This document shows positions 253-61,384 of a stretch of DNA of 64,000 nt, piece after piece. The notes beneath the pieces are model-generated. The model was not told where the DNA came from. It saw only the letters and a program-made list of their open reading frames with translations, and made no database searches. Origin of the DNA: Podarcis filfolensis (Eukaryota); NCBI GenBank assembly GCA_964270895.1, contig OZ185435.1; one strand, 5' to 3'. A program made the position numbers and the translations under genes. The first letter of the stretch is position 1; the number at the start of each line of letters is the position of its first letter.

Positions 253-281
253 CTATTTTAAAATGTCAACCACAAGCTAAG

Positions 282-571
282 TGAAATATACTCAGAGTCG
301 CAAAGTGATTTCATGCTCTTTATTCAGCTCATAGTGGTGAGGAGGAATGAATGGAAGTCCCCTCAAAGTATCTGCTTTATATACATTACTTACACAATGG
401 GCTGCACATGATTGGCTAATTCCGGAATTCTACTGTAAGCCAATCAGGTTGTGGATTCACTTCTATCTGGAGCATGATTGGGTGGTTCCTTCCAACCAAT
501 CATACTGCTGGATTGTTCTAGGACCAATCAGACTGCTGCAGTTTGGATCCTATTCAACTCAATATATAACA
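282..571 (-). repeat. 3' LTR (290 bp)
   Basis: TG..CA termini. Matches 4794-5123 except for 3 substitutions (337, 423, 511) and a 40-bp indel. Minus-strand TATATAAA at 383-376, AATAAA at 324-319, and five CCAAT/ATTGG boxes. Confidence 0.96.
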
Positions 572-583
572 CCCCTCCCCTCT
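572..583 (-). promoter_or_regulatory. Polypurine tract (AGAGGGGAGGGG)
   Basis: Purine run directly 5' of the 3' LTR on the minus strand, overlapping the pol stop codon. Confidence 0.9.
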
Positions 584-3500
584 AAGTTCCAGTCCTGCCC
601 GGGAGGTCGCATTCATAGTCCTCAAGGTACACCGGCGGCCTACGTGTGCGTTGCGGCCTGGGGTGTTCCCTGGTCCGGGGTTCAGGTTCTGGCTTATGTT
701 CCAAGGATGCTGGCTGTGATGGGGCTGTTTGGTCTGGCGCAACCGGCTCGCTCAGTCGTGGTTCTGGTTCCGGCGTCCTTTCGGCCTCACGGGTCCTCTC
801 TGTATTTACTGATTCTGCCACTCCTGCTTGCCCCTGCTGCTCTATGGGCCTAACTGCCCCACTGTTCCCTTGGGACTCCTCTGATCTGTCCTCCTCCTCC
901 TGGTTTTCTCCCGGGAATCGTTGCCGTATCTGGTCGCAGTGGCGGCGCCAGCATTGCCCCCCATCTGTTAGCACCTCGTACGACACGGGGCCAGTGACCC
1001 TGGTGACTGTGGCGGGTACCCATGCAGGGCCTGCCCCAAAATTCTTTGCATACACTGGGTCCTGGGCCTCGAAGGTCCGGGGGTTCCTGCCTTCCCCCAC
1101 CACTACCTCATCCTGAGCTCTATCGGGGTGAAGGCGGTCCAATCTGATTGCAAAGCGCCGACCCATTAGTAGTTCAGCGGGGCTCCAGCCAGTCGTTGAG
1201 CTGGGGGTGCTGTGCTGTGCTGTGCTAGAAGGAATGTGGCAAGGCGGTACTCCCAATCCCCTTGCGTCATGCGGCGAAGGGTGTCCTTGGTGGTCCGCAC
1301 CATGCGTTCTGCTTGGCCATTGGTGGCAGGGTGGAATGGCGCTGAACGGATGTGGCGGATGGCGTTCTGCGCTGTGAAGGTCTGGAATTCTCCTGACGTA
1401 AATGCAGTCCCGTTGTCTGAGACGAGAGTGTCAGGGAGCCCGTGGGTTGCAAACAGCCTGCGTAGTACCCGGATGGCTGCAGACATAGAAGTGGACGGTA
1501 CCAGTGTGACTTCCAGCCATTTGGTGTAGGAGTCCACCATTATGAAGAATGTTTTCCCCTGAAAGGGGCCAGCGAAGTCCACATGCAGGCGTGACTATGG
1601 TGCTCGGGCAGACTCCCAGGACTGGACTGGGGCCCTTGGGGGATCTGGGCGGGATTCTTGGCAGGCCTGGCAGTGTTTGACCCAGGCCTCTATCTCTCCG
1701 TCGATCCCCGGCCACCACACATAACTCCTGGCAAGGGCCTTCATTCTTACTACCCCTGGGTGTGTCTCGTGTAGAGCTGTGAGGACCCTTTTGCGGAGGG
1801 GCTGGGGAACAACGACCCTGCTTCCCCATAACAGGCACCCCTTGTGGGCCAACAGTTCATGTTTGCAGGTTGTGTAGCTGGCGAATTCTGGCCCGGGGCT
1901 GCTGCTGGGCCATCCCTTCCACACCCAGTCCAGGACCCGGGAGATGACCCTATCTTTCTTGGAATGGTGTGCAACTTCTTGTGCCTGAATGGGGCGGTCG
2001 GGAAGCAGCACCAGGCTCATAACCTCTTGTGCAGGTTCTGGGTCGGGGCCTGTTTCCGGTAGTGGTAGCCTGCTGAGGGCGTCCGCATGGCCCATCGCCT
2101 TCCCAGGGCGGTGAATCAGTGCATACTGGTAGCTGGCAAGGAAAATTGACCACCTGAGGATGCGAGGAGACAGCACTTGGGGGGGGTCTGCTTTTCGGGG
2201 GCAAACAAGCCAAGCAACGGCTTGTGGTCAGTCACCACGGTGAAGGGCCACCCGTACAAGAAATCATGGAATTTTTTTACTCCCTTCACGATTGCCAGAC
2301 CCTCCTTGTCAATTTGCGAGTAGTTCCGCTCGGTTGCGTTGAGTGTCTGGGAAAAGTATGCCACCGGTACCTCTCTTCCATCCGGGAGTTGGTGTCCCAG
2401 GACAGCACCAATGCCACAGGGCGAGGCGTCGCATGCTAGCACCACCGGCAGCCTCTCGTCGAAGTGTGCCAAGACCGAGTTTGAGACAAGCAAGTCCTTG
2501 ACTGCCTGGAATGCGGCCTCCTGGCGCTGGCCCCACACCCAAGGGGCCCGCTTGTCCAGGAGTCTGTGTAGGGGCTCCGCTACCGCTGCCTTGTGGGGAA
2601 GGAAGGAATGGTAAAAGTTCAATAGTCCCAAGAAGGCCTGAAGTTCAGTCTTGTTCTTGGGCGCTGGGGCATCACAAATGGCCCGTACCTTGTCCCCAGT
2701 CGGGTGGACCCCTTCTGCGTCCACCATGAATCCCAGAAAGTCCACCTGAGGCACTCCTAGTAGACATTTTTCCCGCTTCACCTTGAGACCCACCGTCTGG
2801 AAACGGTGCAGAACGGTGCGGAGGCGGTCTTCAAACTCATCTGGTGTGGGCCCAGCAATCAACACATCATCGAAGAAGGGGGTGACACCAGGAATCCCTT
2901 TAAGGAGAGAGTCCATTAGATTCTGGAATATGCCTGGTGTCACGCTGACACCGAATTGCAGCCGCTTTACCCTGAACGCTCATCTGTGCGTCACAATCGT
3001 CTGTGCCTCTGCTGTGGCCTCATCTACTGGCAGCTGTTGATATGCTTGGGCCAAGTCCAGCTTGCCAAAAATTTTCGACCCAGCCAGGGTGGCAAGGACA
3101 TGGCTGACCACTGGCACTGGGTATGCATGGGCTGTGAGGGCCTTGTTTATGGTACATTTGTAGTCTGCACAGATGCGGACCAAACCATTAGGCTTGACGG
3201 GTGTGACGATTGAGGTTTCCCAGGGGGCATTAGGCACCGGCTCCAGCACTCCTTGCTCCACGAGTCGGTCCAATTCCTCGTCTATACGGGGTTTCAGGGC
3301 GAACGGGACCCGGCGGGCCTTGAGCCTGACCGGTCGTACTGCGGGGTCAAGCTGTAGAGCAATGGGGGGGCCCGTATACTGTCCCAATTTCCCATCGAAA
3401 ACCCCCGGAAATTCCTTGCATATGGCGTCCACATCCACTTGTAAGCTCGTGTGGTTCACCCCGGTGACGGCTAGCCCCAGTGGTCCAAACCATGCCAATC

Positions 3501-4668
3501 CCAGTAAGCTAATGTAGGGGCCCTTGACCACAAGCAAGTCCAGTTGCTGCGTCCACCCTCGGTATTGCACCCTGAAGGTCCCCACCCCCATTGTGGGGAC
3601 CTTACGTTTCTGGAAGTCCCGGAGGGTGAATGGGGCCGGCCTGAGTTTGGGACCCCCAGTAGGACACAGTTTCCTTAAGGTCCTTGCCGAGATTATGGAT
3701 AGAGTTGAACCCGTGTCAAGCTCCATGCGGCATGGGGCCCCCTCTATCTGTACCTCCACATAAATTTTCTCTATGTTGGGGTGGGGCAACTGGTATACCT
3801 GGAAGTCCGTGAGCTCCGTTGAGTTGCCTTGGTGCGTTGGGCCCCGGGACCTGGGGCTCTTGGATTGGTCATCTGATGCCTGGCGTCGGGTGGGCCGAGC
3901 CCGACACACCCGGGCGATGTGTCCCAATTTTCTGTACTGCCTGCACTCTGTGTTGCGGAAACGGCAGGTCCTCCTCTCGTGACTTTCTCCACAGCTTGCG
4001 CAGTTCCCTCCTTCTCGTCGAGGCAGCTGTGGTATGTGGGCTGCTTGAGTGCGCTGCTGTACTCGGTGTACCTCCTCCCTGTTGGATCCTGAGTCGTCGG
4101 TGAGGTCTTCGTGGTGAACCCTCGGTTGGGACGGCTGGCTCGGCCGTGCCTCTTGCGTCGACCTATCGGCAGCTTCCGTTGCCAGGGCCTCCTCCAGAGC
4201 GACCTGGAACGTTAGGTTCTTCTTAGCGTAGAGGCGTCGTTGCAGCTTCTCATCCTTCAGGCAACCGACGAGGCGGTCCCGAAGCATGTTCTCCAGCTCT
4301 GAGAAGTTGCAGAACCAGGTGGCTTGGCGGAGAGAGGTCACAAACCCAGTTATGGTTTCCCCAGGGGCTTGCCGCTTTGCGCAGAAGGCATTTCGACGAG
4401 CCACTACTGAGGGCTGTGGCGAAAAGTGCCCCTTCAGATGTTCCATTATTGTTTTGTATGGAACAGTAGCGACATCTTCAGGCGCAAGGAGAGCCCGGGC
4501 GATTTCAAACGTCTCCTCTCCGCAGACGCTGAAGAATATTGCCCTCTTCTTGGCGTCTTCTTCATCGGTGACCCCTTTGGCTTCTAGGAGGAAGGTGAAA
4601 CAGGAGGCGTACGCTTCCCAGTCTCCAGATGCTGGGTTGAACGGCGAGAAGCTGCTGTCGGTTGCCAT
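582..4668 (-). pseudogene. Disrupted gag-pol polyprotein (single ancestral ORF)
   Basis: Gag with zinc knuckles CASCGESHERRTC and CRQYRKLGHIARVC, protease LDTGST, RT (RICADYK, FFDD), RNase H (CDAS, TDHKPL), integrase (HETH..CQAC, D-D-35-E). Lesions: TGA at 2982-2980, +2 nt in the G8 run at 2179-2186, TAG at 1597-1595, and +5 nt in the (TGTGC)n repeat at 1206-1225. Confidence 0.95.
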
Positions 4669-4774
4669 TCTGGGTTCCTTGTGTCCCGGAGCTGAAGCCT
4701 GGATACACGGTGCGAGGCAGCGGTGCGGCAGGTGGCGGTGCTGCGGTGCTGTGTGTGGCAGTCAGCTCAGCAGG

Positions 4775-4792
4775 ATCCCACCTTCGTCGCCA
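4775..4792 (-). promoter_or_regulatory. Primer-binding site for tRNA-Ser(GCU)
   Basis: Minus strand TGGCGACGAAGGTGGGAT, 1 nt from the 5' LTR. It is complementary to the 3' 18 nt (ATCCCACCTTCGTCG-CCA) of vertebrate tRNA-Ser(GCU) as recalled. Confidence 0.85.
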
Positions 4793-4793
4793 G

Positions 4794-5123
4794 TGAAATA
4801 TACTCAGAGTCGCAAAGTGATTTCATGCTCTTTATTCAGCTCATAGTGTTGAGGAGGAATGAATGGAAGTCCCCTCAAAGTATCTGCTTTATATACATTA
4901 CTTACACAATGGGCTGCACATGATTGGCTAATTCTGGAATTCTACTGTAAGCCAATCAGGTTGTGGATTCACTTCTATCTGGAGCATGATTGGGTGGTTC
5001 CTTCCAACCAATCATACTGCTGCATTGTTCTAGGACCAATCAGACTGCTGCATTCTGAATCCTATTGTTCTAGGACCAATCAGACTGCTGCAGTTTGGAT
5101 CCTATTCAACTCAATATATAACA
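4794..5123 (-). repeat. 5' LTR (330 bp) with an internal 2 x 40-bp tandem
   Basis: TG..CA termini. Tandem units at 5024-5063 and 5064-5103, each with a CCAAT box. Confidence 0.96.
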
Positions 5124-7008: not shown

Positions 7009-7296
7009 TCATTGTCCGGATAGAATGCATGGTCCACAAATGTTTTCTCCCTCTTTGCAATGGCTTCTGAGGTTTTCTTCATTTTCATAACAAACCACAG
7101 AGTGGTGAAAAGAGGCAACCATAGAACCCCTGTTCTATTGGCATGGGGTTAAGAAGTTAGTCCTACCTATTCTTCCATCAGATACTGCAACATTTTATCA
7201 CTGCTTCTGTATTTCAGCAAGGAGGTGGCTAATCTGTTCTCATTTCTGGCTTTTCGGGAAGAGGTTTGTGTTGCTTTAAGCCTTTGGTGCCCTATA

Positions 7297-7409
7297 CAGT
7301 GGTACCTCAGGTTACAGACGCTTCAAGTTACAGACTCCGCTAACTCAGAAATAGTACCTTGGGTTAAGAACTTTGTAACCTGAAGCGTATGTAACCCGAG
7401 GTACCACTG
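7297..7409. mobile_element. Short Tigger/pogo-type MITE with two left-type ends
   Basis: TIR CAGTGGTACCTC(A/G)GGTTA, TA on both sides. Confidence 0.85.
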
Positions 7410-7448
7410 TATAATAAAACGCCTATAGCATGAAACTGAAACAAATTA

Positions 7449-10830: not shown

Positions 10831-11062
10831 ATCTAAATTATATTTTCACCATTCACACATTTTCCTAGTTGCTCCACTTCTTCTATCTAGAAGCTTTCTT
10901 GGGTTCTGGGCTGATTCACATATTACGACTTTGAGACATACAGTTGATTCATACATGTCCCACCTGAACACCTCAAGAACCACTACTGGGATCACGGCAG
11001 GGCTGTTTGTGTTGAAATGGAGCCGCCTTGTAAGTAGCAAGCATGTGGCCACACTGATTCCT

Positions 11063-11196
11063 GGGATAGCTCAGTTGATGGAGCATGAGACTCTTAATCT
11101 CAGGGTTATGGGTTTCAGCAAAAATATTCCTGCATTGCAGGGGTTGGACTAGATGACCCTCGTGGTCTCTTCCAACTCTACATTTCCATGATTCTA
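11063..11196 (+). mobile_element. tRNA-Lys-derived SINE with CR1-type tail
   Basis: Head tagctcagtt..gagcatgagactcttaatctcagggt resembles tRNA-Lys(CUU). Tail ggactagatgaccct..ttccaactcta..atgattcta. Confidence 0.85.
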
Positions 11197-13011: not shown

Positions 13012-15845
13012 GTTCATTGATTGTGGAGACTTAACCCTGGTGTCTTTCTCAACAGGTTGGGAAATAGCCACATGTATTCAGATGAATGCATTTTTTGTAT
13101 CATGGCATGAAAACATGCTTCCATTTTGTTCTTTCATGGCTTATATAAGCCTTTCTAACCCTTCAGGAAAAAGGAAATGCCATACTGTTCTATCGGTTAT
13201 TCCTGCTGAGTAATCTGAAGTCCCAGCATGTGTGGGTTGTTTCATTCACTGCTCCATGCAGATTTCAAGGTAATAAGGATCCTGCTGGGGGGGGGGGAGC
13301 TGGAGAGGGGGGGAGGACGACAATAATCAGAGATTGTTCTCCTGCCTACCCATTCCCCAACCCCCCACAGAAGAAATTATAACTTTCTTTTTGGATATTA
13401 TCAAGGGAATCTCCTTGAATGTTTGGTTGATCAAGTTTTTAAAGGTAGTTGGTTTTTTTAAGACTACGAAGAGATTCAAAGCTACGTATTTGATTTCAAC
13501 TCTTTTAGCATTTCATTATGTATATGAACATAAGCTGTGTACCCATTGCCAGAAGAAAACGCTGCTAGGTCATTCTTTTCCTCAATTCAGCTGGTTTGAG
13601 GGGAAATGGATCACAAGAAATGGCAGGATAGAGGCAGGATACAGCACTTCCCAAACCAGCGGTGGGTGGGAGCACACTGGAAGCAGAGTAAATGCGGGTA
13701 TATGGCCTGTATGGATAATTGACATTAATGAATTAATCCACTAATTCGTAATCATTTCAGCATCCTGACTTCCCAGAGTCTCTTCAGCTGCTCAAGCAGC
13801 ATCCAAACTGCACCCAGATGAAGACTGCATGACAAAAATGAAAAGTCTTATGGTTCTGACTGTCATGTGCGATGTGATGAGCACAAAGCCCCAGGGTCTC
13901 TGATTCTGGGAGCAGTTTTCAAACAGGCAACCCTAGGGCTAGTGTTCCTGACCATCTCTGCGGACGGTTTGCCAGGCCAGGGCCAGACATGAGTCACTCC
14001 TGAAGCCCAAGCCAAACGGCGTGTTGTCTAACACTGGATTCCTGAGGATAATAGTTGGAGCGGGAACCTAAAATGCAGTAGGCAAAAAGTAGGTGGAAGT
14101 GAAAGGAGCAGCAGGAAATGATGCGGACTTGGTGAGGGGGATGGGATGCAGCTGTCATTCAAAAAATGTTGAGCTTATTATATAAAGAAAAGCGGGCTCT
14201 ATATTTCTAAATTAAATACTGCAGGTGTGTCTGCCATGGCATTCGTTGATATTTAACTGGAAACTTTATTGATAGTTTTTACCGATGCATTTCTTTGTAT
14301 TTTTTGTTTTAAATGTTGTATATACGTTTTCATTTTTATTGATGATCTTACTGCATTTTATGTCAACTGCTTAGGGATTCTGCATATTAAGGGATGTATA
14401 AATATTTTCAAAATATATTTTTATTAAAGATTTCTTGGTTCACAAAGGATGCGCAATGTCTCTTTTTTCAAGTTACATTTTATACAGACCAGTTTCATGC
14501 ATAAATATGTTTTTTATGGTGGTGGCGGCGATTATGATGTGCAGGGTGCCAAAGGGCCCTTTGTCTTTCCTCTTCACATCAACTCTTTAACCATGGACCC
14601 GGTTTTAAAAAAATAAAATGCAAATGGGCTGCTTGAGCCCAGCTGATTTACAGTGCCAAGAGCTGTTGCCACATTGAAAGGACACGCCATAAGAAAGCAC
14701 TTACTTTTGTCTCCTCTGCATCGGCTACAGGCTGCTGCCCTTGTGGAATTTGTCACCACCGTTAAGGATGACCCTTAGCTTGTTTCATGCCTGAGTGATA
14801 GTTCATTTGCTCTTAATCTTTAATAACAAGGTGACCATTGTATCCCATGCATCCAGAGCATCCCAATCTGAGCAAAGGCCATTTCCGCATTAAATGAAGG
14901 ATCATCATGATAAGTAGGACTCCCTGCACCATATTTCACCACTCCTGTATTATCACCCTGATCAGGTTCTCCGCACTGTAGCACCCTTTAGTCAAGCCCA
15001 AATGCCTTTCCTTCCATTTTCTACTGACCCATTCTGGAGATCTGAACAATAGCAGAATAGAAGCTTTGTTATGGAGCGGAGTCCTGAGAGATTAATCAGG
15101 TACATTACTGATTAACCCTGCCGGCTTTGGAATGTCAAATACTTCCTTTCTTTTAACTCTACAGCATGGGAGGAACAAAGTGTTCGTCCCAGATGAACTC
15201 CCCCAAACAAATTTCCACTTAGGTTGTTACTGAAGACCAACACCTGTTTTCAAGTCAATTCCTGGGCTCATTCACTCTCTCCATCTAGATTTGTTCTTGT
15301 GGATTTATTTATTTATGATTTTAGTCTGCATAGAAGCTAGAGCACTGCTTGCATGTAAATACTCCCCCCCCCCCTTTTGAATGTTGGTCTTGCTAGCAAA
15401 AATTCATTTTTGGTGCCTCTGTAAAACAACCTCTCTAGGCCTTTCATTTTAGACCAGGAAGAAAAACGTTCACCCCTGGAGGTTTATCAGATTGTTGTCA
15501 ATAGATGTGCTCTGAATGCATTGGCAAAATTAGCACCCCAAAACAGGTGAAAAACTTGTTTTGCAAAGGCAGCACCCAAAAACAGAATGAAATGCTTCAT
15601 GCGATCAGGATGGGGGGGTGGAGGAGCTGCAAACCCAACTACAGGCTGATCCACCAATGAATTAAAGCAGAATTCTTGGGTTTTAAATTGGTGTACAGCT
15701 TGATCCTTAAAATATGTCTGACACAGCTGTCGTGGCATTTTGTACAAGACAGGTCTACTTTTATATGCTGTACATCATTTGCAATCCCATTATCACTCCC
15801 TTTAAGAGCAAACTCCGGTGGTGAGTGCCAACAGGAATGGAAGCT

Positions 15846-15991
15846 GGGATAGCTCAGCTGGGAGAGCACGAGACTGTTAATCTCAGGCTGGTGGGTTTGA
15901 GCCTCACACTGGGCAAAAGAATCCTGCATTGCAGGGGGCTGCGCTTGATGACCCTCCTTAGTCCTTCCAGCTCCATGATTCTATGATTCTA
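15846..15991 (+). mobile_element. tRNA-Lys-derived SINE with CR1-type tail
   Basis: Same head and tail as 11063-11196; ends in (ATGATTCT)2. Confidence 0.85.
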
Positions 15992-17255: not shown

Positions 17256-17487
17256 ATAAATTATTTTTCTGTCACGGTCTAAATACCTGCATTTAATTTT
17301 TACAATATAAACAGAAAAATGTGTGCTGTTGCATTAAAAAGTTACATTTTTAAAAGGGGGGGGATGTTTCAAAGATATGAAATCACATTCTTCTGGTTTA
17401 CTGTTCAGTTTCAGACTCCATATAGATAACTTATTTTCCTACAACTGCCACAGTGTTGTTTTGCCCCAAGATATTATTCAGAATTCT

Positions 17488-17560
17488 TTCCAGTAGCACC
17501 TTAGAGACCAACTAAGTTTGTTATTGGTATGAGCTTTCGTGTGCATGCACACTTCTTCAC
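17488..17560 (-). mobile_element. Penelope-like short insertion with truncated hammerhead motif
   Basis: ccagtagcaccttagagaccaactaagtttg..gctttcgtgtgcatgcacacttcttca, flanked by the 12-bp duplication ATTCAGAATTCT (17476-17487, 17561-17572). Confidence 0.75.
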
Positions 17561-18158
17561 ATTCAGAATTCTGCATTTTATCTGTAACCCCCCTCCCACA
17601 CCCCATTTGCATTAATAGAATACAGTTTACAGTACTAACTGTGGGGAAACAATTAAATTAGCCCGAGGACTGGCCAGTTTTAAGTAAATTGGGCAGGCAA
17701 GATCAGCCCATTGTGTTTGTAAGACTTCAAACACACACCAGAATCTTTCCCCTTCCCACTCCCCAATTATTTTTGCATAATCCAGAGGAATGTAACAAAC
17801 AAAAGCCCTCTCAGAAGTCAGATAGCTTTCAATTTGAGTTGTAGGTAATCAGTGAAAGAGAGAGAATCCTGGAGAGAAGGTAATTTGTCTTGAGCTGGCA
17901 GTTGGAGATGGATGTGCTCTGGGGGTTATCTGTAGTGTCAGCTCAGCCAGAGATGGACTGAACTCCATGACTCTTCCCTGAAATCTGAATCAATGGGTAT
18001 TTGTAGCGTCCATCTCTACCTAGTGTGTCTGTATCAAATATCGTCTCGATGCTATTGAACTCAATAACTTAAGTGTGTTCGCCCATCGCATTTTTGCATA
18101 TCTGTTTCATTTAGCATAGATAATTGTCAAAATATAGAAAAAAATAAAAATAAATTGT

Positions 18159-18231
18159 CCAGTAGCACCTTAGAGACCAACTAAGTTTGTTCTTGGTATA
18201 AGCTTTCGTGTGCATGCTCACTTCTTCAGAT
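18159..18231 (-). mobile_element. Penelope-like short insertion (second copy)
   Basis: Near-identical to 17488-17560, flanked by AATTGT (18153-18158, 18232-18237). Confidence 0.75.
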
Positions 18232-18232
18232 A
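18195..18232 (-). ncRNA. Minimal type I hammerhead ribozyme motif
   Basis: Minus strand TAT-CTGAAGA-A-GTGAG-CATG-CACAC-GAAA-GCTT-ATA. It has the CUGANGA and GAAA core, helix II, palindromic AGCT at helix III, and a short helix I. Confidence 0.7.
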
Positions 18233-19430
18233 ATTGTATTAGGGTTCAGAGATTGCAGATACCCATAGACAGATGGGTATTATTATTTTTTTACTGGACC
18301 AAAATAAATGCAATTTTCTGAAGTTCACGGAACTATTCATCTGATTTCTGCATAAATAGCTTCGTTAAAACACACATACTGTAGTTCAGTTCTCCCTGAG
18401 GCATATATGTATGTATCTATTGCATTAAATGCTGATGTGCATTTAATGTTGTATGTAATTTGGCATCAATGGAAGCTTTCCAACTGAGGGTGGGCTAACA
18501 TTAACTTGCGGGTGGGGGGGAGTTTTGGTACACAAAGAAGGAGTCAACTCTCCCTCCCATTGTTCTTATCCTGCTAAGGGGCCTCAGCCAATGATATTTG
18601 AAGAACTGAGGGGGGGGGGTCCATGTTAAAGGATTAAATGTCACATGTAGTTTGGTCCTTTGAAACCAATTTTTTCCTTCGGTTTGATTTCCTGTCCCAG
18701 GCCAGTTGCATTTTTTTTTTGCTCCCAGTCTTTGCTGGATTGGAACAACTGGTGTTGATGATCAATAAACCTACTTGTGGGTTGTGTTGCATATAGATAT
18801 AAAGTTGGTTTAAAATTGTTAACGTGCTCAAATGCATGCTCTGGTGAAGTAGAGCATGAGATACAAACAAGTCTAAGCTACCTAGTAAAAAAGTCCCAGT
18901 TTAAATGACTGGGAGTTAATTCTTTAAATGGAAGAAAAATAAATTGTTACCTTAAGTAGACAGGTGGGACCTGCAACAAAATATTGCAGGAAGAAGTCCT
19001 CCAGCCCTGTGTTCAGCCAGCCATGCCTTCCTCCGTGACATTCCATTCCATTACCCCACCACACAATCCATTTTTTTCTCTTCCAACAGTCAGGCTATCC
19101 TCTGAGCATCAGTCCTTACTGAGCTATTTTGAGTGTTTTCGCCAAAAGTGTTTTTTTTGTTTTGTTTTGTTTTTTAGTGGGGAGACTTCTGCAAAGATTG
19201 GAATTCCCTTAAGGCTACAGATACTTCCTTCTTTTGTATAAATATTGCTGTTTTGGCAACATAAGGACTTACCCACACCTCAAGCAGTGTGTGCTTTCAA
19301 AAATAGCATAAAATGGAAATGTGGGTGCCCTAGAGTCATGTCAGATGGCTTGTTTGAATGCATGACAGTATCCAAAATGGCATCCCTTGTCATAGAACTG
19401 TACAGTTGGAATTCCAAGGACCATCTAGTC

Positions 19431-22279: not shown

Positions 22280-22449
22280 AAACTTCTTATTACTTTTAAT
22301 AGAAGACTGCTGTGTCTTTATTATTTTTAAGAGGGAACAAGGGATTTACCAGGAACAAACCCAATATGCACAAGCCAGATTGGATTGCTTAACTCAAGAG
22401 ATTCAAACAAATCTACCAACTAGCTTCCTGCAATATACAGGGGAATGTA

Positions 22450-22675
22450 CAGTGGTACCTCGGGTTACAGACGCTTCAGGTTACAGACTCCGCTAACCCA
22501 GAAATAGTACCTCGGGTTAAGAACTTTGCTTCAGGATGAGAACAGAAATTGCGCAGCGGCGGCATGGTGCCAACGGGAGGCCCCATTAGCTAAAGTGGTA
22601 CCTCAGGTTAAGAACAGTTTCAGGTTAAGAATGGACCTTCAAAACGAATTAAGTTCTTAACCTGACGTACCACTG
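22450..22675. mobile_element. Tigger/pogo-type MITE, family A
   Basis: TIR CAGTGGTACCTCGGGTT, TA flanks. Confidence 0.9.
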
Positions 22676-22823
22676 TACTCTGCTACCAGCTCACTAGCAT
22701 GAGTGAGGAAGGATAATATTTAATCAATATATCCTCTCCTACTATCCACAACATTCCCACACAGGCCTCTCTCTCAAGCTCTTTGGACTCTCTCTAGGCC
22801 CTCCCTGAATTCTTTGACAGCCT

Positions 22824-26336: not shown

Positions 26337-26516
26337 CATTACAAACAGGACTGAGGCAAGGTTCTCTGGCACATATTTCTGGGTGTAAAAGTGTTGGGTT
26401 GCAAAGCCCCTCCCCACTGAAGACCTACCCCTTTTTGATGCCTATTCATGGTTACATCAGAACTAAAGAGTCTTGCTGGATCAAGCCCATGGCTTTCTGC
26501 ACAAAAGATGATATTA

Positions 26517-26742
26517 CAGTGGTACCTCTGGTTATGAACTTAATTCGTTCTGGAGGTCCGTTCTTAACCTGAAACTGTTCTTAACCTGAGGTACCACTTT
26601 AGCTAATGGGGCCTTCCACTGCCGCCACGCCGCTGCTGCATGATTTCTGTTCTCACCCTGAAGCAAAGTTCTTAACCCGAGGTACTATTTCTGGGTTAGC
26701 GGAGTCTGTAACCTGAAGCATCTGTAACCTGAGGTACCACTG
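26517..26742. mobile_element. Tigger/pogo-type MITE, family A
   Basis: TIRs and TA flanks; next to a CR1-tail remnant. Confidence 0.9.
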
Positions 26743-27401
26743 TATGCTCCAAGACAATATTTTCTTTTATACTATTTCACATGCCCTGGAAGTAATCTCT
26801 GGTATCCCAAACAGGCTCAGAGCACTGGATAGTTTTTGTCTTCTGCTTATGCTTTCCAGTTTAGGATTACCCCTTATGTATTTGACAAATTGGTCCACAA
26901 AAGCTGAAGCCATCATTTAAGGTGTCACAATGCACCTTTTCTCCTCCTGTCTTTCCAGATGACAGCGAGGAAGAGAAGAGCAGGGCTCAACAGCTCTAGG
27001 GGTTGGCAATGGGCCCTTTGCTAGGGGCTCAGGAGGTGCCTGTCAGTGCCCATCGCTGATGCCATCCCTGAGCTTTTGTTCAATGCCTTAGCTCATAGCC
27101 CATATTAAAAATGAGCACTGTTTGAAACAACGGTTTAAATTATTGAATGGCTGTTTCAATCACTAGCTGCATGCCACAAAGCTACAAAGGCAATACAAAG
27201 AAAGAAAATCAGATAAAACTACTATTTATTGTGAAAAACAGGTAGTTTTAGGATTAAGCCAATATTTACTTTCTAATTCATCTGTAGCTATGAAGATTTC
27301 TTTTCAGATAGATAATGTTACATTACACAGACTATTTTTAAAAAAATATATCAAATTTTTACATTTCTCTCAGTCCTCCAAATACCTTTTGTGATCACCA
27401 T

Positions 27402-35184: not shown

Positions 35185-35452
35185 NNNNNNNNNNNNNNNN
35201 NNNNNNNNNNNNNNNNNNNNNNNNNNNNNNNNNNNNNNNNNNNNNNNNNNNNNNNNNNNNNNNNNNNNNNNNNNNNNNNNNNNNNNNNNNNNNNNNNNNN
35301 NNNNNNNNNNNNNNNNNNNNNNNNNNNNNNNNNNNNNNNNNNNNNNNNNNNNNNNNNNNNNNNNNNNNNNNNNNNNNNNNNNNNNNNNNNNNNNNNNNNN
35401 NNNNNNNNNNNNNNNNNNNNNNNNNNNNNNNNNNNNNNNNNNNNNNNNNNNN
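35185..35452. other. Assembly gap (268 N)
   Basis: Run of n. The ORFs at 35175 and 35181 are artefacts of it. Confidence 1.
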
Positions 35453-52860: not shown

Positions 52861-52982
52861 AGAAGACAGGTCCTCTTATGGATCTAGGAGCAGTTGGTGC
52901 CGCAGAGCACCAATGTCTGCATACAAATCTGTGGGACAACTACCCTGGTGCTAGTCACCACACCTCAAAAAAAAAAAAAGTA

Positions 52983-53224
52983 CAGTGGTACCTCGGGTTA
53001 CATACGCTTCAGGTTACATACGCCTCAGGTTACAGACTCCGCTAACCCAGAAATATTACCTCAGGTTAAGAACTTTGCTTCAGGATGAGAACAGAAATCG
53101 TGCAGTGGCGGCGCAGTGGCAGCAGGAGGCCCCATTAGCTAAAGTGGTGCTTCAGGTTAAGAACAGTTTCAGGTTAAGAACAGACCTCCAGAACAAATTA
53201 AGTTCTTAACCCAAGGTACCACTG
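52983..53224. mobile_element. Tigger/pogo-type MITE, family A
   Basis: TIRs, TA flanks, three subterminal repeats. Confidence 0.92.
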
Positions 53225-53474
53225 TAGAGCAATATGCTCAGGGATTTGGACAGTGAGATGAGGTGAGGGCATTTAGCCTCCTGTCACTGACCAGCAGTGG
53301 AAGAGGCCAGGCAGCAGTGAGGTCAGTGTGGTGCAAACAAGGAAATGTTACATCACTGGTGGGTATATAGAGGTATGTCTTCATGCAGTGCAAAACTAAA
53401 ACTATGGGTGCTCACTTAGACTGCTTCAAAAAGAGAGGATAAGATTTATGATGGCTATCTGCTAACTCCAGTTT

Positions 53475-57272: not shown

Positions 57273-57832
57273 GTATCTGCTTGGAAGGCACTGATACAAG
57301 TGGTGTTGGTGACAATGCAAATAGTTATCCTTCCCATATTTACCCTTATTGCAATATTTGCCCTTATGACTATTTCTTTATTTGTGTTAAGTTTCAAGAC
57401 TTGCTTTTTTTGTTGCTACTCTGCAAAGAGCCGTGCATGCTGGCAGCAGTATATGAACTGGTCTTTCTCAGTCTGGTGTCCCCAATATATTTTGGACTAC
57501 AACTCACATCAGTCCTGCCCTGCCTGCTGTTCAGGCATGATGGGATTTGTGGTTCAGTAATATCTGGAGGGCACCCTGTTGAGTGTAGAGCAATATATAA
57601 AGAAGTTAACTTAGGGAACCTGATCAAATCTTGCTCACCGCATGATCTTGGCCTGTCACCAATTTTTAATAATAATTTTAAAAATCCAGAATGCATTGGG
57701 ATATAAATGTCAATGGAAATAATAAATCTATGGCTTCCCAAATGAGGAATATGGTAGAACCAGAGAATGATGACATTATTGTTTGTCAGTCACAGGCTGA
57801 ACAGGTGTTTTGGAGACGGAGGTTTCGAAGTA

Positions 57833-58058
57833 CAGTAGTACCTCGGGTTAAGTACTTAATTTGTTCCGGAGGTCCGTTCTTAACCTGAAACTGTTCTTAA
57901 CCTGAAGCACCACTTTAGCTAATGGGGCCTCCCGCTGCTGTCGTGCCGCCGGAGCACGATTTCTGTTCTCATCCTGAAGCAAAGTTCTTAACCTGAAGCA
58001 CTATTTATGGGTTAGCGGAGTCTGTAACCTGAAGCGTATGTAACCTGAGGTACCACTG
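57833..58058. mobile_element. Tigger/pogo-type MITE, family A
   Basis: TIRs and TA flanks. Confidence 0.92.
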
Positions 58059-58314
58059 TATCCTGTGTAAGCAGAAAGATACTTCCACTCGTGCAAGTTT
58101 TCTCTCCCTGATTTCCACAAAATTCCTACTCCCACTCAAGTATGCTGCAGTACATTCCATGCTGTTCCGAAAGATGTCCCAGTCCTCAGGAATAGCATGT
58201 CAGAGGTACAGAACACGGTACATAGCACTATGTAGCAACCCTACAATACTACGTAGCAGAGGTCTACTTGCACTTTTATGGATCTAGAACAACAATAATA
58301 CACCAGAGTTCTTT

Positions 58315-58738: not shown

Positions 58739-60738
58739 AAAGCATTTGTTTTCAATTTGTATAGCAGTGGTGCCAGAGTTGCCTCCCAGTAGAAGGACCA
58801 AAAATGTTTTGTGCAGTCAAAGATTGTTCATGTTTATTTGAGAGAAAATCCCACTGTATCCAATGGAACTTATTTCCAGATTTATATGCCTGTGTCTCTA
58901 GCTTTAGTTATTTACTGTACATCAACACCCATTCATATAAGATCACCAGTCTCTAAGTCCCATTTGTGCCACAGAACAAGTGTGTGGTCCTTTCCCCACC
59001 CCTCTCACCTGGCTTGTACATAGGAGAACAATTGCTAGAGTTGAGGCCGCCTACAGCTGGAAGCCGGAGGCAGAAGGTTGGAAGCTGCTGAACGAGAGAG
59101 TTGTCTTGCTCTGTGCTGGACTTTGGGGCACCCCTGGAAACCTAAAGGGGTGTAAATGCTGTGAGCCCTTCCATCCTATGAACTGACATTGTCAGGATTC
59201 TTTGAGCTGTGTGCTTTCAATGATCGGATGTACACAGCCTCTTCTCTCTCCATCCTACACCACTAGGAGAGCAAAGGGAACGTTGAAAATACACAATATG
59301 CAGTGTTTAATGGCATAACAAACTCACACAATCCTTCCATTCCACACCCACCCCACCATTCAATGGTGTCTCCACATAAGACAACAGAGCTATCTTGATC
59401 TAGACCAACTGTGACCTGTTCCAAAAATATTTTTTTAAAAAATGAATTTATTTATATATATGATAAATCATATGGTCTGAACAAAGAGGCCTGAATTGTT
59501 ATCCCGGAAGGCAAATGAAATAAACATGCAACAATAGAAGACATTGCTAGACAGAAGATGAAAAGAAGCAAGGCTATTAAAAAATTTGGCAATGGAGATA
59601 AAACATTCTGAAAACAAATGATGGTGGAAGAAATTCCAATTGTTGTGTCTATGACTGGTGTACTTCACTGAAATGTAGGTTGGAGAAGATTTAGGTAATG
59701 CAAAACATTGTTATAATTCCACAGAACTTACAACCCTCCAAATCTTTCATGTGTCACATTGTTTCATAAAGGCAAGATGCAATTCACCAGGTGAAATCTA
59801 GATGCCTGTACAAATGTAAGGATATATATATTCAAAATATAGATCTCCAAGTTGGCACATACCCTTGCTTTCAATCCACTAAGTAGCACAGATGAAGATT
59901 GTTTTGCATGTTATGTTTCAAATGCATTAATTTTTTATTGTCATGGACCACTTGAAAATGGTTGAATATGAATTGTTGAATATCAGCATTCAATATGTCT
60001 TCAACCACAGCTCCACAAACACATCACGGACCACCTGAATGACATTTGCGAACTACTGGTGGTCCGTGGATCACAGTTTGGGAACTCCTACACTAAACAA
60101 TGTGTGGAAAGATGTGCATAATGAACACACCGAACAGTAAAACTGAGTGTCATAGTTCACAAGACTCTGCAAGAGCCAAATTCCTGGGTACATAGACCAG
60201 AATGGCACATTAATAGCACAGCAGTACTGCAGATCTCCGGTTCCTTTTCTGCTTCCCACTTTATTCCTTTACTTTGGGACACAGGATTATAGCGTTCTGC
60301 ATTGCGACTCCTCTGCTCTGCCTAACCGGCAGCCCATTAGGAAAAAGTCACATGCTGGTGGCCACATCTCTTTCCAGTCATGTTCAGATGTGCTATTTGA
60401 TCATCAGAGCGGGAACAAACCTTGTGTGAAGTGATAAATGACAAAGCAGATCAAGGAAGTCACACTTCCCCCTTTCGCACTTCTGTGGGTGCATGATACG
60501 TCTTGTCAGTGGTGAGTTCCCCAAATACTAATCACACATCTCACAATGGGGCAGAAGCACAAGTTCCTCCTTCATACATCATCCAGATGCAAAAAGAGGA
60601 AGCATGACTCGGTTGCCTGTTGTCAATAATATGCAAATTTCCTCAGATAAAGGAGCAACCTGAGGGATGCCTTTAGCAACTCACTGAGGGCCGATAAGTT
60701 GAAAGCAAGTGAAAGCTGCAGCTCCATGGTTGCCTATA

Positions 60739-60980
60739 CAATGGTACCTCGGGTTAAGTACTTAATTCGTTCCGGAGGTCCGTTCTTAAACTGAAACTGT
60801 TCTTAACCTGAAGCACCACTTTAGCTAATGGGGCCTCCCGCTGCCGCCCTGCCGCCGGAGCACGATTTCTGTTCTCATCCTGAAGCAAAGTTCTTAACCT
60901 GAAGCATTATTTCTGGGTTAGCGGAGTCTGTAACCTGAAGCATATGTAACCTGAAGCGTTTGTAACCTGGGGTACCACTG
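60739..60980. mobile_element. Tigger/pogo-type MITE, family A
   Basis: TIRs, TA flanks, three subterminal repeats. Confidence 0.92.
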
Positions 60981-61384
60981 TACATACATCCTTACATTGT
61001 TGCCCTTCAAGAATGTACCCAAGTTGTGGACAATACATTTATCAATCCAACTCAGTCACCTGGAGGATGAAGGGAGCCTGTTCCACTATCCAGTTCTGTC
61101 ACCCAAGAGAACATGATATGACTGTCAATGGTTATAATGCAGGTGACTTCTTTTGTGAGTCGTTGTTCCTTAAGACTCCGTTTCCCTCACCAAGAGGAGC
61201 TGCAGTAGCAGGGAGAGGCAGGCTCTATTCTGTAATAGCCCCAATGGTTTAAAGAAATGCTGGAGGAAGCTTCCCAGTGTGCTACCAAATCAAATTTGTT
61301 TAAGGAATGGTGGGATGATGGGAACTGTAGTCCAAAAACAGCTGGAGACCCAAGTTTAGGAAACAGTGCACAAGATAATGATGA

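Follow-up and report, generated by a model that had tools for sequence, protein, structure and literature searches.

Two minimal-hammerhead inserts in Podarcis filfolensis DNA are probably independent front-end copies of a Penelope-like element, internally primed on a capped messenger RNA

The window, by which we mean the whole 64,000-nucleotide stretch of Podarcis filfolensis DNA analysed here, carries two short inserts that each hold a hammerhead motif. We read these inserts, with a probability of roughly 0.74, as independent copies of the front end of a Penelope-like element (PLE), made when reverse transcription was primed within the leader of a capped messenger RNA (mRNA) and ran off its 5' end; that they lie close together would be chance, and the pair is predicted not to cleave. 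The element, its hammerhead, dispersed single motifs, inverted repeats, and the tail are already described. Below, positions within the element are counted along the hammerhead strand (the minus strand of the window) with hammerhead C3 as 0, and the ribozyme cut follows +29. The features of the two inserts are as follows.

17476..17487: copy 1 left target-site duplication, 12 bp, ATTCAGAATTCT
17488..17560, minus strand: copy 1, a 73-bp PLE leader stub of the subfamily with a CUC cut triplet
17527..17560, minus strand: copy 1 hammerhead; helix II 17552-17539, predicted cut between 17531 and 17530
17561..17572: copy 1 right target-site duplication, 12 bp, ATTCAGAATTCT
17573..18117: spacer, 545 bp of single-copy host DNA that is not itself a repeat unit
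18118..18127: copy 2 left target-site duplication, 10 bp, AGATAATTGT
18128..18227, minus strand: copy 2, a PLE leader stub of about 100 bp, of the subfamily with a CUU cut triplet
18197..18232, minus strand: copy 2 hammerhead; C3 at 18229, helix II 18221-18208, predicted cut after 18200
18228..18237: copy 2 right target-site duplication, 10 bp, AGATAATTGT

A first-pass annotation of this DNA had described two hammerhead-bearing inserts in the same orientation, each about 73 bp long and ending at the hammerhead. Both are real, lie on the minus strand with their own target duplications, and finish at the 5' edge of the hammerhead; the length holds for copy 1 (73 bp) but not for copy 2, which spans about 100 bp (18128-18227). 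A 73-bp copy 2 was rejected, as the 6-bp AATTGT that would bound it is internal to the family and most of the top matches extend across the A/T tract. The two copies are the only family members in the window, and their hammerhead cores are 669 nt apart. Copy 1 stops short of both usual 3' sites of the family, at a microhomology with the target, and copy 2 ends at the first usual site, immediately past a U-rich tract. The first 5 nt of the right duplication of copy 2 also match the 5' end of the element, and its C3, U4, and 5' helix-I bases fall within that duplication; the junction therefore used a 5-nt microhomology. Neither window copy is clean at its 5' end, copy 1 beginning at +1 after a G and copy 2 being joined by microhomology. 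No tandem repeat was found within the 545-bp spacer, and a genome search with it, which passes over very common words, returns only the spacer itself.

The window holds other repeats. On the minus strand at 280-5066 there is an LTR retrotransposon with two 275-bp repeats that are 98% alike and several broken frames of gag/pol-like appearance, putatively Ty3/Gypsy. At least six copies of an element of about 230-250 bp with TACAGTGGTACC-type inverted ends are present (7294-7412, 22448-22677, 26515-26745, 52980-53229, 57829-58061, and 60734-60983); presumably this is a MITE, probably of the Tc1/mariner type, and insertions of it at a TA close to the ribozyme cut break up some PLE stubs (e.g., at locus L242). 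The tRNA-like heads at 11060-11120 and 15843-15915 (Rfam tRNA, 28-30 bits) probably belong to tRNA-derived SINEs, and a run of 268 N (masked or gap) occupies 35185-35452.

Judged by their sequence, the inserts are pieces of an endonuclease-bearing (EN+) PLE, since full-length copies with reverse transcriptase (RT) and GIY-YIG domains exist in the genome and the window cores differ from one of these, L164, at 3 and 4 of 70 positions. A protein search returned open frames of 927-929 aa in three full-length copies (L163, L164, and L165). L164 consists of a hammerhead-pLTR, a 928-aa frame (RVT_1, E 4e-10; GIY-YIG, E 4e-5), a second hammerhead-pLTR, and an inverted third, so that the marks of an EN+ PLE can be seen in it: a single ORF with RT and, at its C terminus, GIY-YIG, placed between hammerhead-holding pLTRs in direct and inverted arrangements. 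The optional tail of 30-40 nt is found in the family as two alternative 3' ends. Given the three open frames and the dozens of copies that score equally against a C-terminal query, the family has been active very recently. One young subfamily is marked by C for A at the N position of CUGANGA.

The first-pass annotation had proposed counting the family genome-wide. In the genome searched (1.5 Gb, 349 contigs), a 23-nt anchor from the element has 12,896 exact matches and its reversed control 0. Exact 32-mer matches that reach the hammerhead edge number 5,585 (reversed control 0), of which 2,081 continue 10 nt beyond it, a drop partly due to mutation. Longer copies run upstream past a TATA box into the end of the GIY-YIG domain.

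The earlier identification of the motifs as PLE-derived minimal type I hammerheads is supported by their sequence and by the description of such hammerheads in PMC4209133. It is on these two that the assignment rests, because the Rfam hammerhead models do not detect the motif: the model search that had been suggested gave 0 matches in the window or in the 900-bp region, the minimal form lying outside what these models cover. In the family and in copy 2 the core reads CUGANGA / GAAA / UH, A9 is followed by one additional base, and the pair G10.1-C11.1 is present. Copy 2 retains CUGAAGA plus the extra A, and GAAA-GCUU-AUA, as had been noted, but its helix II, also listed as kept, contains an A-A mismatch (18218 x 18211); helix I of this copy is 3 bp long, versus 4 bp in the full-length element. 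Copy 1 does have the perfect 5-bp helix II and the G in place of C3 (17560) that had been reported for it, and its helix I is just 2 bp; the C3 that a minimal type I hammerhead requires is thus missing from this copy. A helix I of 4-5 bp together with a paired helix II is seen in neither copy, the family helix I being 4 bp. In the cited passages of PMC11167929, a C3G change abolishes cleavage by the hammerhead of Poseidon from Anolis; copy 1 is predicted, from its sequence, to be inactive as an enzyme half.

The motifs resemble the minimal hammerheads known from PLEs in their conserved core, the extra base between 9 and 10.1, and G10.1-C11.1, and the family shares the palindromic helix III and the helix I of 4-5 bp. 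As here, those hammerheads occur mostly as dispersed singles or opposite-strand pairs associated with truncated PLEs. Work on them proposes cleavage and circular templates, whereas the copy ends seen here ignore the cut site.

The evidence for this comes from mapping both ends of the copies in 124 loci, all on contig C1, which yielded 158 arms (66 simple and 92 with an inverted partner). The first 100 anchor matches supplied 59 loci, after removal of 16 loci that belong to one repeated block where the contig begins and of 3 overlapping loci; a second search supplied 65 (25 of 30 places, 5 duplicates being dropped, and 40 further places, with the window's own skipped). The sample is anchored on exact words and thus biased toward young copies, and one locus, L174, contributes 6 related arms. 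Near the contig start (G000:C1 88,541-257,066), eight inverted stub pairs with an identical spacing of 105 bp, which probably go back to a single insertion multiplied within a repeated subtelomeric block, were entered as one.

Among the 41 simple arms that reach -1, 25 stop at -8..-1 where the background rate predicts 2.5 (p 1e-20). For the wider range -8..+6 the figure is 33 of 49, with 5.4 expected. The commonest stop is -4 and the next is -6. The TATA word begins at -37 or -35, that is, 29-33 nt ahead of the main stops. Stops within 2 nt of the ribozyme cut amount to 3/58 with 2.2 expected, and in both window copies the cut site is internal, the uncut hammerhead lying within the copy. The possibility, raised at the outset, that the inserts are random truncations of long Penelope copies falls away because the 5' edge of the ribozyme is strongly preferred as a boundary across the family. 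At the 3' side there are two preferred ends about 35-40 nt apart, one at +80..+106 (66/158) and the other at +126..+140 (70/158); of the remainder, 15 are shorter, 4 lie between the clusters, and 3 are longer. Of the 24 inverted events with two arms, 22 combine a short 3' end on one arm with a long 3' end on the other.

Head-to-tail stub dimers, with their units 141-190 nt apart, were also observed (L078, L120, and L172, and also L119). In these the downstream unit restarts at -4 or -6 and the length of the upstream unit varies.

The junction at the commonest stop has a second peculiarity, an extra G at -5, which both window copies lack. Ends at -4 are preceded by G in 13/22 arms vs 17/85 at other ends (p 6e-4), and in simple arms ending at -4 the figure is 9/12; ends at -6 show no excess (3/13). 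The element's own base at this position is T. Genome-wide, 1,972 exact matches have a next base that is not that of the element, and these comprise 1,314 with G and 658 with A or C, so that G accounts for 67% against about 29% expected from base composition. The flank can explain the G in two of nine simple cases (L193 and L078). In L1 and SVA elements, an untemplated 5' G has been attributed to copying of the m7G cap (PMC3287187, in the part cited). Non-templated addition is another possible source of the G, as is a fold-back of 1 nt through helix I, where the same base would be templated; a second base templated by such a fold-back is present in just 3 of 11 scorable G cases, which is about chance. 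In the papers surveyed and the passages cited here, we found no description of a 5' stop that is preferred in this way and accompanied by an added G; Lunse et al. 2017 and the supplementary Fig. S2 of PMC11167929 may have a bearing on this.

Three same-strand matches to the extra-G pattern lie exactly 85 bp apart at G000:C1 49,350,772-49,350,965. This is possibly a short tandem array of hammerhead units and a retrozyme-like candidate.

We infer, from the sequence of the copies, that transcription starts at the stop point and that the G is derived from the cap. The mRNA would begin 4-7 nt ahead of C3, with the hammerhead 4-6 nt behind the cap, and the priming sites would be present on it in two sets, one close to the 5' end and the other within the 3' pLTR. 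When the RT starts from the 5' set, it would copy just some 90-140 nt before running off at the cap, leaving stubs, whereas a start from the 3' set would give long copies that are truncated at random. The inverted form could result from priming on both nicked strands, which fits the tails of one short and one long arm; fold-back of the cDNA alone was considered for the inverted arms and fits this tail pattern poorly. Lacking the TATA box and, if the Anolis element is a guide, also the RT-binding sequence beyond the priming site, stubs would be dead on arrival.

Several of these steps have counterparts in vitro. According to the cited parts of PMC11167929, the protein of Poseidon from Anolis makes nicks in both strands of AT-rich DNA, its RT starts at two internal sites that bound the 'tail' and needs RNA beyond them, the template is uncleaved RNA, and a template cut at its 5' end gives shorter products. 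In other PLEs, the promoter and start site reside in the pLTR (PMC6765202, PMC8557442, and PMC3846280, in the passages cited). This layout is not universal among PLEs, since the promoter of Penelope in D. virilis is TATA-less and internal (PMC2377424).

One of the closest described systems, in the text of Frangieh et al. 2024 (PMC11167929) that we cite, is Poseidon of Anolis carolinensis (PAc), and the label 'Poseidon-type' would apply to the present family by resemblance to PAc as it is described there. Both have RT with a C-terminal GIY-YIG, a hammerhead at the pLTR/ORF junction with an ATG inside it, two internal RT start sites bounding a tail of 30-40 nt, an uncleaved RNA template, and AT-rich targets. 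They are different sequence families; in the young subfamily here, unlike PAc, the ATG in helix II meets a stop codon after 9 codons, and in the same text, Fig. S2 aside, neither an extra G nor a preference for 5' stops at the edge of the hammerhead is reported. The passages cited from PMC3846280 and PMC8557442 give EN+ PLEs an inverted pLTR and a one-sided tail, TATA and Inr-like pLTR motifs, and duplications of about 8-16 bp; the family here agrees, with 92/158 arms having an inverted partner and the tail on one side in the 22 inverted events counted above, although the window copies themselves are simple, non-inverted stubs.

The strongest competitor, which we consider unlikely, places the transcription start elsewhere and has RT halting at the 5' edge of the hammerhead through RNA or cDNA structure on a longer read-through template. 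Structure evidently shapes some junctions, with many of the inverted ones landing inside helix II (+8..+11), stops at 0..+6 being raised as well (8/49 simple arms), and a helix-I fold-back being expected to template G first. The main stop, however, lies beyond the entire structure and at TATA spacing, and the second base of the fold-back appears no more often than the near-chance rate given above.

The first-pass annotation had instead suggested a ribozyme-defined, SINE-like module that retroposes on its own. Several observations speak against it: the copies contain the cut site and show no preference for ending there, the stubs have no TATA box, their 3' ends fall at the two PLE 'tail' sites, and subfamily variants are common to short and long copies. 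A SINE would have an internal promoter or structural-RNA head of its own; no tRNA or other Rfam match was found within the inserts, and the TATA box lies outside the stubs. A retrozyme would be a tandem repeat with an intact hammerhead in two or more successive units and with unit ends set by ribozyme cleavage; at the window locus there is no array, the spacer is single-copy, and the core of copy 1 is broken, and in the mapped sample ends near the cut are at their expected level. Animal non-LTR retrozymes (bioRxiv 10.64898/2026.07.22.740005; PMC7229834, as far as the cited portions go) do share with these stubs a non-coding nature and type I hammerheads derived from the PLE pLTR, but the former of these sources describes tandem repeats with an intact hammerhead in every unit, in contrast to the unique spacer and separate duplications here.

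A variant of this idea, which we regard as improbable, is a SINE-like mini-element with its own short master RNA, mobilised in trans by PLE proteins. Most copies are indeed short, many with clean duplications; 18 of 33 simple short arms share at least 8 nt across their flanks (one of these is a tandem artefact), head-to-tail dimers occur (L078, L120, and L172), and both non-autonomous PLE derivatives (MRC1, in the part of PMC8557442 cited) and animal retrozymes (in the cited part of the bioRxiv report) are known. Yet the short copies show the variants of each long subfamily and lack the TATA box, the upstream units of the dimers end at differing positions (+157, +183, and about +135), and the 3' ends coincide with the PLE tail sites. 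In the 158-arm sample, haplotypes common to short and long copies number 31/11, 7/3, and 3/1 (short/long), and the GAC variant, which is young, is carried by 3 short arms and by the full-length copies L163 and L165. Some rare haplotypes in the sample are seen in short copies only, including the exact haplotype of copy 1 (2 short, 0 long; the long copy L082 is one base off). The best reading is that the stubs are by-products, neither a self-propagating SINE nor a retrozyme.

It is very improbable that the boundary is a splice acceptor, with the pyrimidine tract and CAG at -8..-6 closing an intron and the stubs deriving from spliced RNA: the sequence ahead of -5 does resemble a 3' splice site, and in D. 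virilis the intron ends at helix I (PMC4209133), but -5 is the end point of just 3/158 arms, and ends at -4, -5, or -6 are not preceded by any constant exon upstream.

Turning from the family to the pair in the window, copies 1 and 2 disagree at 3 of 70 positions, including two that vary between subfamilies, and because of these subfamily differences and the separate duplications they represent independent events. Roughly estimated from a density for which just 3-5 events were counted per 280-344 kb, chance alone would place 61-111 pairs on the same strand and within 700 bp across the genome. None of the 124 loci has a same-strand neighbour 250-1,500 nt away; the neighbours that were seen comprise three at 141-190 nt (tandems) and one at 2,770 nt. 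The closeness of the two inserts is likely to be chance.

Contigs of organisms B, C, and D run from unique flank into both inserts; by the differences listed, the G3 of copy 1 is unchanged in organisms B and C, and the helix II mismatch of copy 2 is unchanged in organism C and in another sample of organism A; both inserts and both defects therefore predate those splits. No empty-site allele was seen in the 4 contig sets.

The first-pass annotation had also raised the prospect that the two motifs dimerise in cis and cleave a host pre-mRNA. As a functional dimer, copy 2 would have to cut the CUC site of copy 1 on a minus-strand host transcript, this being the sole possible active site, and we think it highly unlikely. 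The copies are on one strand, 669 nt apart, with complementary AGCU, related organisms share both insertions, and the Anolis ribozyme is protein-assisted, so weak motifs might gain help. Against this, helix I of the dimer would consist of three A-U pairs and helix II is broken by the A-A mismatch, the reciprocal core lacks C3, both defects are also present in organism C, and even intact PLE dimers cleave poorly in vitro (PMC4209133). With the copies being from different subfamilies and both damaged, the spacer single-copy, and such pairs expected by chance, the proposal is not supported. Nor was a host gene found at the locus: there was no Pfam match above cut-off in 140 of 337 stop-to-stop frames of at least 55 aa, the 140 having been picked by a crude composition score that short exons would escape. 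The folding cost of the active dimer does not discriminate, being 18 kcal/mol for the window pair (15 with the mismatched pair forced) and 21 kcal/mol for L120, a natural intact tandem. On its sequence the window pair is likely inert. For cis-dimer cleavage, intact tandems that occur naturally, L120 among them, would be more promising than this pair.

One further idea is speculative, and we hold it to be improbable. With the PLE hammerhead directly behind the cap, copying of a cap-derived G may have produced more than 1,300 stubs with a better-paired ribozyme than that of their parent, and these could cut host RNAs. If this were true, cleavage by the hammerhead would decap the PLE message, the cap-derived G would lengthen helix I from 4 to 5 bp (GGUAU/AUACC), stubs transcribed in the sense direction could cut host RNAs, either in dimeric form or aided by PLE protein, and there would be a genome-wide layer of cap-made ribozymes.

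On our preferred reading of internal priming and run-off at the cap, the stubs, thousands in number, would seem to preserve at base resolution the transcription start and the RT priming points of a vertebrate PLE. Internal priming on RNA that is capped and uncleaved, hitherto shown in vitro, would thereby gain support in vivo, and the pattern speaks against templates that are circular or cut by the ribozyme as the source of most insertions. The same reading would also account for the abundant dispersed single minimal hammerheads of animal genomes without a new SINE.
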